Shown here piece after piece: positions 41,100-42,809 of a DNA stretch of 47,013 nt (position 1 is its first letter; each line of letters opens with the position of its first letter). Origin of the DNA: a virus. Its lineage: Duplodnaviria; Heunggongvirae; Uroviricota; Caudoviricetes. The stretch lies in the IMG/VR virus record IMGVR_UViG_2541047907_000003; one strand, written 5' to 3'. The translations under genes and the position numbers were made by a program. Under the pieces are notes generated by a model, which was given only the letters and a program-made list of their open reading frames with translations, did not search any database and was not told the origin of the DNA.

Positions 41100-41152
41100 T
41101 GTTAGACTAATCTAACAAAAAACACTTGCCTCTTATGTTAGGTTATTCTAAA
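41100..41152. promoter_or_regulatory. two more TGTTAG-N6-CTAAC(A) operator-like palindromes upstream of the dicB operon
   Basis: TGTTAGACTAATCTAACA at about 41100-41117 and imperfect TGTTAGGTTATTCTAAAT at about 41136-41153. Confidence 0.55.
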
Positions 41153-41231
41153 TTACTTTCCATCAAGACACCGCACGGTGTTCTCAGCAAACAGTTCCGC
41201 TACCCCGGCGTTAAGGGGAAATGAGGTCAGC

Positions 41232-41384
41232 ATGGATACTATCGATCTTGGCAACAGCGAATCTCTGGTATGTGGCGTGTTCCCCAACCAGGACGGCACG
41301 TTCACCGCGATGACGTATACCAAAAGCAAAACGTTTAAAACCGAATCTGGCGCGCGTTGCTGGTTAGCCAGAAACACTGACTGA
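41232..41384 (+). CDS. YdfA-like small protein
   Basis: track ORF 41178..41384; probable start MDTIDLGNSESLVCGVFPNQDGTFTAMTYTKSKTFKTESGARCWLARNTD (50 aa). Confidence 0.55.
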   Translation: MDTIDLGNSESLVCGVFPNQDGTFTAMTYTKSKTFKTESGARCWLARNTD

Positions 41385-41761
41385 TGAGGCTGACGATGGA
41401 ATTTAAAGATTTACCGTCTGATGTACAGAAAACAGCAGCTCATACATTGCATTCTGTGCTGCGAGAAATCGGGAAAGATATTGCAAGCGAGCCAGCAAAA
41501 GATCTGGCCCGGAAAATCAAGACCGCTTTCGTTGAGCTTTATAATGTTGGCACTGACTCTGAAACTGTCGAGACCAAGACCGTAAGTTCACCAATATTCT
41601 CACTTGAGCCAGGCGTATTATCAGGTGAAATATGCACCGAGATTTCCAGCGAACTGCTTCCGGTAATACGAGAAGCAATTTGCCGTCGCGGTTTGGATGG
41701 AAGTTACGATCATGACGTCCTGCAAGTTCTCAGGACAATGGTGACTTCACTGGGGATTTGA
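41384..41761 (+). CDS. hypothetical protein
   Basis: 125-aa ORF MRLTMEFKDLPSDVQKTAAHTLHSVLREIGKDIASEPAKDLARKIKTAF; start overlaps the preceding stop. Confidence 0.5.
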   Translation: MRLTMEFKDLPSDVQKTAAHTLHSVLREIGKDIASEPAKDLARKIKTAFVELYNVGTDSETVETKTVSSPIFSLEPGVLSGEICTEISSELLPVIREAICRRGLDGSYDHDVLQVLRTMVTSLGI

Positions 41762-41930
41762 TCCCTGCGTCCTCTAACCTTTTGATATAGCGGTCCTCCA
41801 AGAAGCGGTAAATTTTGTCGAAATCATCTTTCCCCTCTGGTTTATTCAGAGGATTACAGGACCCGTAAGTAGCGGCATACATTTCAACCGTTTTATCAAA
41901 AATATAAGAGACAAATTCTTCTTTAGTCAT
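41730..41930 (-). CDS. hypothetical small protein
   Basis: track ORF 41730..42017; probable start MTKEEFVSYIFDKTVEMYAATYGSCNPLNKPEGKDDFDKIYRFLEDRYIKRLEDAG; convergent with the 125-aa gene. Confidence 0.35.
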   Translation of the reverse strand: MTKEEFVSYIFDKTVEMYAATYGSCNPLNKPEGKDDFDKIYRFLEDRYIKRLEDAGIKSPVKSPLS

Positions 41931-42206
41931 ATAGATTTCCTTCTTGGTTATTCGGGATAAGAAGGATACCACCTCGCCTGACGTGGTTAAAAGCAGGCAC
42001 ACAACACGAAAGCGCACGGCGAAGTTCGTCTCACTGTACGGTGTCGTTAAATTTAATTCGACCGTGCGCTTCCGGTTGTGGCAACCCGCGAAATGGCGCG
42101 GCGGTAAGTATGGCGGGGTTATTCCTTCCCCGTTGAGGACACCGAGTTGTCAGGTTGACCATACGCTTAAGTGACAACCCCGCTGCAACGCCCTCTGTTA
42201 TCAATT

Positions 42207-42263
42207 TTCTGGTGACGTTTGGCGGTATCAGTTTTACTCCGTGACTGCTCTGCCGCCGTTTTT
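42207..42263 (+). ncRNA. dicF: DicF small regulatory RNA
   Basis: TTTCTGGTGACGTTTGGCGGTATCAGTTTTACTCCGTGACTGCTCTGCCGCC followed by GTTTTT; matches the DicF sequence as I recall it, immediately upstream of dicB. Confidence 0.8.
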
Positions 42264-42432
42264 AAAGTGAATTTTGTGATGCGGTGAATGCGGCTAAGCG
42301 CACGCGGAACAGTTAAAACCAAAAACAGTGTTATGGGTGGATTCTCTGTATCCGGCGTTAATTGTTAACTGGTTAACGTCACCTGGAGGCACCAGGCACT
42401 GCATCACAAAATTCATTGTTGAGGACGCGATA

Positions 42433-42621
42433 ATGAAAACGTTATTACCAAACGTTAATACGTCTGAAGGTTGTTTTGAAATTGGTGTCACTATCAGTAA
42501 CCCTGTATTTACTGAAGATGCCATTAACAAGAGAAAACAAGAACGGGAGCTATTAAATAAAATATGCATTGTTTCAATGCTGGCTCGTTTACGTCTGATG
42601 CCAAAAGGATGTACACAATGA
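42433..42621 (+). CDS. dicB: cell division inhibitor DicB
   Basis: track ORF 42328..42621; start at MKTLLPNVNTSEGCFEIGVTISNPVFTEDAINKRKQERELLNKICIVSMLARLRLMPKGCTQ (62 aa). Confidence 0.85.
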   Translation: MKTLLPNVNTSEGCFEIGVTISNPVFTEDAINKRKQERELLNKICIVSMLARLRLMPKGCTQ

Positions 42622-42809
42622 ATTCAGCATTTGCGCTTGTTCTGACAGTTTTTCTTGTTTCCGGAGAGCCAGTTGATATTGCAGACAGTGTTCACAGGAC
42701 AATGCAGGAGTGTATGACTGCAGCAACCGAACAGAAAATTCCCGGTAACTGTTACCCGGTCGATAAAGTTATTCACCAGGATAATATCGAAATCCCGGCA
42801 GGTCTTTAA
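42618..42809 (+). CDS. ydfD: YdfD-like small membrane protein
   Basis: track ORF 42564..42809; start at MNSAFALVLTVFLVSGEPVDIADSVHRTMQECMTAATEQKIPGNCYPVDKVIHQDNIEIPAGL (63 aa); ATGA overlap with dicB stop. Confidence 0.7.
   Translation: MNSAFALVLTVFLVSGEPVDIADSVHRTMQECMTAATEQKIPGNCYPVDKVIHQDNIEIPAGL

Follow-up and report, generated by a model that had tools for sequence, protein, structure and literature searches.

An immunity switch and early-left dicBF operon of the Escherichia coli B type in the sequence of a Qin-family lambdoid prophage

The virus record IMGVR_UViG_2541047907_000003, a stretch of 47,013 nucleotides (nt) referred to here as the window, contains a region in which a preliminary description, made from the letters alone, had proposed a dicB operon repressed by a DicA-like protein and carrying the small RNA (sRNA) DicF. 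It is very likely that this region comprises the immunity switch of a lambdoid Escherichia coli prophage of the Qin family together with its early-left (PL-type) operon, dicBF, in the variant also found in E. coli B. The proposed outline is supported, but it was incomplete, as ydfB/ydfC are replaced and one of the replacement genes is antisense; this replacement, a hairpin 5′ of DicF, an STnc100-like leader between dicF and dicB and a rem homologue 9 kb upstream were all missing from it. By every test applied, the locus belongs to the DicF, DicB, DicA, DUF1391 and DUF1482 families. Sequence comparison indicates that the 2.7-kb dicBF region is already known, since identical or near-identical sequence occurs in public E. 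coli genomes, including BL21. When positions 40300–43000 (2.7 kb) were compared with complete E. coli genomes, the ETEC1738 chromosome proved 100% identical, and the E. coli B strains BL21(DE3) and REL606, as well as E. coli C, 99.6%. Some part of this query is present in 4763 of 5426 complete genomes, at least 80% of it in only 186. In BL21 the element adjoins rspB, the position that the cryptic prophage Qin occupies in K-12. The features of the operon core are as follows.

41997–42082, plus strand: hairpin 5′ of DicF (predicted fold, inverted repeat I6)
42206–42263, plus strand: DicF sRNA with terminator U-run (53-nt RNA at 42206–42258, U-run at 42259–42263)
42256–42432, plus strand: structured dicF–dicB leader, 174-nt, STnc100-like with a sub-threshold score; the Rfam match extends to 42465
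42433–42621, plus strand: dicB, 62 amino acids (aa), intact
42618–42809, plus strand: ydfD, 63 aa, DUF1482 (PF07358, 87 bits)

A covariance scan of the whole window matched the Rfam DicF model RF00039 over its full length at 42207–42258 on the plus strand, with 72.5 bits (E = 3.5e-14) against a gathering score of 48 bits. DicF had been placed at about 42207–42263, with the Rfam model named beforehand as a test that could refute it, and the score well over the threshold upholds that placement. The K-12-equivalent 53-nt RNA (42206–42258) is identical to K-12 dicF at 52 of 53 positions, the last base being changed from C to G. The G at nt 53 (42258), which separates the terminator stem from the U-run, is common to BL21 and ETEC1738, and C is found in K-12 and in phage mEp460_ev081. 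Folding predicts a GGCGGUA/UGCCGCC stem (−16.6 kcal/mol) followed by G UUUUU, in agreement with the 3′ GC stem and U-run described previously; the z-score of this fold is only −2.1, owing to the shortness of the RNA. DicF is encoded in a long untranslated stretch 5′ of dicB, inside a DicA-type prophage operon. Despite the score over the Rfam threshold, RefSeq lists dicB and ydfD but no dicF non-coding RNA in ETEC1738 and BL21.

In K-12, the 3′ part of DicF pairs with the ribosome-binding site of ftsZ and the 5′ end with xylR, and pykA is a third validated target; the pairing regions were mapped by experiment (PMC5069750). Since nt 1–52 are identical to those of K-12, the residues that pair with ftsZ (3′ part) and with xylR and pykA (5′ part) are kept. 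RNAduplex returned the same ftsZ duplex for both alleles, with an energy that is not distinguishable from that of shuffled sequences (46/500), and for this reason the argument on target pairing is based on sequence identity. Both protein products of the core are likewise close to their K-12 counterparts. DicB matches Pfam PF05358 (136 bits, cut-off 27) and NCBIfam NF049927 (132.3 bits, cut-off 100) over residues 1–62 of 62 and is identical to the K-12 protein at 61 of 62 positions (A61T), so that the dicB ORF (open reading frame) is intact at the proposed length. YdfD, identical at 61 of 63 positions, has the expected 63 aa, and its ATGA overlap with dicB can be read in the sequence as caCAATGAatt.

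Two predicted hairpins flank DicF at places where its K-12 transcript is cut. RNase III generates the 5′ end of a 190-nt DicF precursor in K-12, and RNase E the 5′ end of the 53-nt form (PMC10448788); a 72-nt form is also made by RNase III (PMC5069750). Counting 190 nt back from 42258 leads to about 42069, within the 3′ arm of the 41997–42082 hairpin, and the end of the 72-nt form would fall at about 42277, in the 5′ arm of the leader stem. We have counted the presence of hairpins at the ends of the K-12 RNase III products as support for the assignment. From the base of the upstream hairpin (about 41997) the sequence is again homologous to K-12, the hairpin itself being 76.7% identical, and the fold of 41990–42432 has a z-score of −4.6.

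Upstream of the operon lies an immunity region that contains the following features.

40348–40575, minus strand: dicC, Cro-like regulator of 75 aa (NCBIfam DicC NF007282, Pfam P22_Cro)
40589–40606, no strand assigned: exact operator palindrome TGTTAGACTTTTCTAACA in the dicC–dicA intergenic region
40638–40655, no strand assigned: weak operator-like site AATTAGAATTACCTAACT with 3 mismatches, just 5′ of the repressor start codon
40656–41063, plus strand: DicA-family repressor of 135 aa (NCBIfam DicA NF007257, Pfam HTH_3)
41100–41117, no strand assigned: exact operator palindrome TGTTAGACTAATCTAACA, separated by 8 bp from the predicted dicBp −35 element downstream of it
41126–41154, plus strand: predicted dicBp, with −35 TTGCCT (41126–41131), a 17-nt spacer and −10 TAAATT (41149–41154)
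41136–41153, no strand assigned: imperfect operator TGTTAGGTTATTCTAAAT with 2 mismatches to TGTTAG-N6-CTAACA, overlapping the dicBp spacer and −10 element

Profile searches placed the 135-aa repressor, previously described as DicA-like and of the XRE type, in the DicA subfamily (NF007257, 224.7 bits, cut-off 101), well over the cut-off. The Pfam search returned helix-turn-helix (HTH)-type families, HTH_3 being the strongest, and no Peptidase_S24. In a protein alignment the repressor is 57% identical to K-12 DicA. The dicC product scores 165 bits against NF007282 (cut-off 130) and is 86% identical to K-12 DicC, with the differences confined to the N-terminal 30 aa.

Exact 18-bp palindromes, TGTTAGACTnnTCTAACA, occur in two copies, one on either side of the repressor gene (40589–40606 and 41100–41117), and the pattern TGTTAGACTNNTCTAACA has 2 matches in the 47-kb window and 0 in 100 shuffles. 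The first copy abuts a minus-strand promoter-like site, TTGACT-16-AATAAT (40633–40606). Palindromic operators are thus present at both divergent promoters, the exact pair being accompanied by weaker sites at 40638–40655 (the aligned K-12 sequence is ATTTAGCATTAGCTAACT) and 41136–41153. The two operator-like palindromes that had been noticed at the 5′ end of the operon correspond to 41100–41117, which is exact, and 41136–41153, with its 2 mismatches. K-12 is reported to have three operators per region (PMC10448788); we found two per region, and a search allowing up to 4 mismatches gave no third. The half-sites TGTTAG-N6-CTAACA are the same as those of the K-12 dicA/dicC palindrome TGTTAGTCATAACTAACA, and, judging from these common outer half-sites, the window repressor and K-12 DicA may bind each other's operators. 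The position of dicBp was obtained by alignment to our own reading of the K-12 promoter, TTGACC-17-TAATCT, and would set the start point at about 41156–41161. A simple promoter and terminator scan missed dicBp (an 8/12 match) and the DicF terminator, whose loop is too long for the rule; the same scan predicted no plus-strand intrinsic terminator between dicBp and DicF.

The antirepressor of the K-12 system also has a counterpart in the window.

31263–31514, minus strand: rem homologue, 83 aa (antirepressor of DicA in K-12)

This gene sits 9 kb upstream of the dicBF region. Its product is near-identical to K-12 Rem, an antirepressor of DicA (PMC10448788), with few residues different, but the presumed DicA target is only 57% identical. 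Control of rem by LexA was considered and rejected: there is no CTGT-N8-ACAG box near rem, and the window's one match, at 10565, is no more than chance would give.

Comparison with the Qin prophage of K-12 (MG1655, b1569–b1577) showed the same order of dicC, dicA, dicBp, ydfA, DicF, dicB, ydfD and exonuclease gene, with rem, hokD and relBE upstream and the operator half-sites TGTTAG/CTAACA in common. In K-12 the exonuclease-side genes are represented by the pseudogenes ydfE, insD7 and intQ, whereas exonuclease, xis and int are intact in the window. Identity to K-12 changes abruptly along the region.

40340–40478: 3′ part of dicC, 97.8%
40479–41063: immunity module (5′ end of dicC, operators, dicA), 59%
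41064–41160: dicA–dicBp intergenic region, 57%
41161–41384: transcript leader and ydfA, 88.8%
41385–41996: operon middle, unrelated
42083–42925: region after the 5′ hairpin, 98–100%, with the dicF flanks and the leader at 99%

It could be argued that such a locus is an inert relic, recognizable but no longer under selection: the host prophage carries insertion sequence (IS) insertions, and the products are toxic and normally repressed. We regard this as extremely improbable, given that all ORFs are intact and that parts of the query persist in the large majority of complete E. coli genomes counted above. Moreover DicF, its flanks and the leader are 98–100% identical across K-12, E. coli B, enterotoxigenic E. 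coli (ETEC) and phages while the neighbouring modules have been swapped.

The same gene set as in the window, including the DicF G53 allele, is found in E. coli B (BL21(DE3), REL606) and ETEC1738, which differ in their flanks only: the BL21 exonuclease is truncated and its integrase frameshifted, and an IS66-family element lies in the ETEC1738 integrase. This shared gene set includes two ORFs that take the place of ydfB/ydfC in the middle of the operon.

41232–41384, plus strand: ydfA homologue, 50 aa, DUF1391 (PF07151, 94 bits)
41396–41761, plus strand: 121-aa ORF (phrog_33007), in the place of ydfB/ydfC
41730–41930, minus strand: 66-aa ORF inside the operon (phrog_34441)
41963–41971, minus strand: extended −10-like element TGgTATCCT, about 33 nt before the start codon of the 66-aa ORF

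The first of these is the YdfA-like ORF noticed before, now with its Pfam match. Between ydfA and dicF, however, ydfB/ydfC are missing, and 41385–41996 has no meaningful alignment to K-12 (about 45%, with 145 gap columns); the interval is occupied by the 121-aa ORF and, on the minus strand, by the 66-aa ORF. The plus-strand ORF had been described as encoding 125 aa. That frame is present (41384–41761), but the protein probably has 121 aa, because RefSeq starts it at ATG 41396, which is preceded by GAGG 7 nt upstream. The two ORFs converge, and their 3′ ends share 32 nt.

Conservation and start regions suggest that the two are real genes. Full-length homologues of the 121-aa protein occur at 75–93% identity in Salmonella and Enterobacter; the 66-aa ORF, which has an AAGGAA Shine–Dalgarno sequence, has homologues of conserved length in Cedecea and in prophages from metagenomes, with identities as low as 54%. 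RefSeq labels both as hypothetical proteins. Searches of Pfam, NCBIfam and PADLOC gave no match for either, and PHROGs returned only families without known function. The AlphaFold model of the 121-aa protein is poor (predicted local distance difference test (pLDDT) 54); that of the 66-aa protein shows a simple helical hairpin (pLDDT 81.5), for which a Foldseek search of the PDB found nothing better than E = 4. Homology to the convergent Rac ORFs rac10 and rac11 was looked for and found with neither protein. On an unrelated prophage contig (L007), the gene of a 65-aa homologue of the 66-aa protein again converges on, and overlaps with, an ORF beside a cI-type repressor, and the C-terminus of this overlapped ORF resembles that of the 121-aa protein; the Cedecea homologue is found in antisense orientation, with cro-like and cII-like genes on either side. 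A block, GGTGGTATCCTT / GGTGATACCCTT (TGnTATCCT), is conserved about 33 nt before the start codon of the 66-aa gene and its homologues in three different contexts, which suggests an autonomous promoter for the gene.

The presence of this length-conserved minus-strand gene, with its Shine–Dalgarno sequence and TGnTATCCT element, between dicBp and DicF raises the question of whether DicF and DicB have been uncoupled from dicBp, with transcripts from dicBp being stopped or degraded through the convergent 66-aa gene and its RNA, and with DicF and dicB silent or driven by an internal promoter. Furthermore, about 670 nt of the plus-strand RNA (41762–42432) would be untranslated, which we infer could in principle favour Rho-dependent termination. 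Uncoupling nevertheless seems very unlikely. K-12 also has an untranslated stretch, of 567 nt, where primer extension yielded no evidence for an internal promoter (PMC10448788); from 42083 onward the sequence is 99% identical to K-12, the same layout is retained in a sequenced phage, and the promoter scan found no plus-strand promoter in 41930–42206.

We retain the assignment to a dicBF operon under DicA-type control and, given the 98–100% identity to K-12 of DicF with its flanks, of the leader and of dicB and ydfD, adopt the K-12 mechanism for it. In K-12, deletion of dicA raises dicBp activity 22-fold, Rem acting as antirepressor gives 165-fold induction, and DicA and DicC form a bistable switch. 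K-12 DicB inhibits division in a MinC-dependent manner and YdfD is a lysis protein (PMC10448788); DicB also mediates ManYZ-dependent phage exclusion (PMC10448788; PMC6832061). The statements made earlier, that DicF and DicB inhibit division in K-12 and that DicB is reported to affect phage sensitivity, agree with PMC5069750, PMC10448788 and PMC6832061. By homology, DicA would keep dicBp off, and the Rem antirepressor, or a stochastic flip of DicA/DicC, would switch it on. The DicF transcript would then be processed by RNase III and by RNase E. Most transcripts would stop at the DicF terminator, and those that read through would express dicB and ydfD. DicF, as an Hfq-binding sRNA, would pair with the ftsZ ribosome-binding site and with the xylR, pykA and manX mRNAs; DicB would bring MinC to the septum, blocking Z-ring formation, and would also bar the entry of phages that inject through ManYZ; YdfD would act as the lysis protein.

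Several points weigh against this assignment and the mechanism attached to it. The case for an operon is made from sequence, and expression is inferred. With a repressor that shares little more than half of its residues with K-12 DicA, repression of dicBp and sensitivity to Rem are assumed by analogy, and dicBp as placed is a weak match to consensus (8/12). The middle of the operon is unlike that of K-12 and holds a convergent gene by which transcription towards DicF might be disturbed. Finally, the one changed base of DicF (C to G at nt 53) adjoins the terminator U-run.

The dicF–dicB leader is a further constant element of the core. Single-sequence folding closes it with a stem that extends from the DicF U-run almost to the dicB Shine–Dalgarno sequence, and the core arms (42268–42286 and 42397–42415, repeat I1) are 95% complementary over 19 nt. 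Against the STnc100 model RF02076 it scores 34.5 bits, under the gathering score of 47 (E = 3.5e-6 in a 271-base search); the scores elsewhere are 34.4 in K-12, 43.8 in Rac-SA53, 43.0 in P7 and 32.9 in 75/02 Stx. On these scores the leader resembles STnc100 without being assigned to the family. Previous work has described STnc100 and its relative PasD as prophage sRNAs (bioRxiv 10.64898/2026.05.13.724894). The DNA of 42253–42417 is 79–90% identical to the sequence that immediately precedes kilR in Rac-SA53 and Kil in Shigella phage 75/02 Stx, and part of the leader is present in the ban operon of phage P7. Leader-homologous stretches were located at these positions of three compared sequences.

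L008, 1496–1685: leader-homologous stretch
L009, 1501–1616: leader-homologous stretch
L010, 1589–1787: leader-homologous stretch

The hairpin motif of the leader, CACCNGGAGGCACCNGGCAC, occurs in at least 120 viral contigs; of 143 copies inspected, 33 are followed by dicB and 8 by kilR. When 16 distinct dicB/kilR leaders were folded with RNAalifold, a 27-bp closing stem was kept. The pairs are mostly invariant or show one-sided changes, and two inner-hairpin pairs have compensatory changes. The support from covariation is weak, because the sequences are too similar.

Other systems share parts of this organization. In 2016 it was stated that DicB/DicF occur in no phage genome (PMC5069750). The DicF–dicB–ydfD block is found in the isolated phages HannyBb (99%) and Tritos (97%, with DicF annotated), and mEp460_ev081 has the fuller arrangement from repressor to integrase, both replacement ORFs included; by these matches the three phages update that statement. 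Rac-type prophages (Rac-SA53) and Shigella phage 75/02 Stx resemble the window in having a repressor, convergent small ORFs, an STnc100-like leader, a small division inhibitor and an exonuclease, and Rac-SA53 has a DicF-like terminator hairpin just before the leader (RF00039, 41 bits, sub-threshold). They differ in that the inhibitor is KilR, not DicB, and the small upstream ORFs are unrelated.

The PL operon of lambda functions in the same manner: it is a repressor-controlled early-left operon with a division inhibitor and with the recombination and integration genes last, its set being the cI/cro switch, kil, exo–bet–gam and xis–int, with sieB on the opposite strand. The opposite-strand gene inside the operon, here the 66-aa gene, recalls lambda sieB. 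An analogy between the dicBF operon and the lambda PL operon has been drawn before (PMC10448788). The DicA-type repressor of the window differs from that of lambda in being short and lacking an S24 domain, and K-12 DicA is antagonized by an antirepressor and not cleaved via RecA (PMC10448788).

Downstream of ydfD, the recombination and integration genes follow on the same strand.

42903–45374, plus strand: exonuclease of 823 aa (PF16473, 226 bits; phrog_2082), with a C-terminal Rv2179c-like 3′–5′ exonuclease domain
45447–45698, plus strand: excisionase-like ORF; the aligned ETEC1738 gene is annotated as an excisionase family protein
45718–47013, plus strand: complete integrase ORF, 431 aa; the aligned ETEC1738 integrase is interrupted

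The 823-aa exonuclease is the intact counterpart of the K-12 pseudogene ydfE. As the operon runs on into exonuclease, xis and int, we take it to be the early-left operon of a lambdoid prophage, and one that looks largely complete: there are long ORFs with the size and order expected of tail, head and terminase genes, as judged by length and order only, together with hokD (ORF at 31731–31886), relBE (with rem) and, from a profile search, an ORF of the YdaT family.

This raises a different view of why the operon is kept, namely that it is primarily the early-left operon of a working phage, with a Kil-like block of host division serving the lytic cycle, and not a domesticated module that benefits the host. 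The prophage may still be largely functional: the 431-aa integrase, the excisionase and the exonuclease of 823 aa are all intact here but not in K-12, the long ORFs are sized and ordered like structural and terminase genes, with the reservation just made, and the DicF–dicB–ydfD block occurs in isolated phages, in the fuller arrangement in mEp460_ev081. An IS3-family element in a gene named 'Primosomal protein I' and a second transposase at 33786–35126 argue the other way. Overall we consider this view possible but doubtful. It is compatible with the assignment to a dicBF operon and concerns its selective rationale.

The IS3-family element lies at 38089–39302 on the minus strand, with orfA/orfB transposase ORFs and an ALIL frameshift pseudoknot (38905–39021). 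It interrupts the counterpart of a 966-nt ORF of ETEC1738 and BL21, leaving a truncated ORF at 39308–39916 on the minus strand; in mEp460_ev081 this gene carries the name 'Primosomal protein I'. Because of the interruption, the prophage is probably replication-defective. The second transposase ORF, of 446 aa (33786–35126, minus strand), lies where ETEC1738 has an ISEsa1-family transposase pseudogene. Beside it is a full-length match to sok RNA (111 bits; 35205–35371, minus strand) with no intact hok ORF next to it, which looks like a hok/sok remnant separate from hokD. Between the IS element and the replication region, a P-loop ATPase of 495 aa (35475–36962, minus strand; Sll1717 family in ETEC1738) gave a weak match to the PADLOC candidate-defence model PDC-M28C (E = 4e-5) and may, by this similarity, be a prophage-borne defence gene. 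In addition, two cspA-type thermoregulator leaders (25042–25427 and 27935–28327, both minus strand) fit the cold-shock genes of Qin-type prophages, and an IS009 RNA match lies at 132–330 (minus strand), near the tail-fibre end.

The dicBF operon has been under study since the 1980s, and we attach little weight to this region as a discovery. Its practical use lies in annotation: dicF is left unannotated by RefSeq in ETEC1738 and BL21, where the operon departs from the textbook version of K-12. The comparison also illustrates mosaicism, in that a toxic core (RNase III hairpin, DicF, leader, dicB and ydfD) is held constant at 98–100% while the immunity module and the small upstream genes are exchanged. 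What may be modestly new is the antisense 66-aa gene and the leader common to dicB and kilR. We found no account of either in the K-12 literature consulted, and the idea that the two add control over the toxic genes is one that we put forward tentatively and hold to be rather unlikely. In this scheme, the 66-aa gene may be autonomously transcribed and expressed in the lysogen, in the opposite-strand slot that sieB occupies in lambda and Rac, and its convergent transcript may dampen leakage from dicBp into DicF and dicB. The leader, with its 27-bp stem between the DicF U-run and the stretch preceding the dicB or kilR ribosome-binding site, may be a shared cis-regulatory and RNase III-processing element by which the translation of different division inhibitors is gated across the lambdoid phages.

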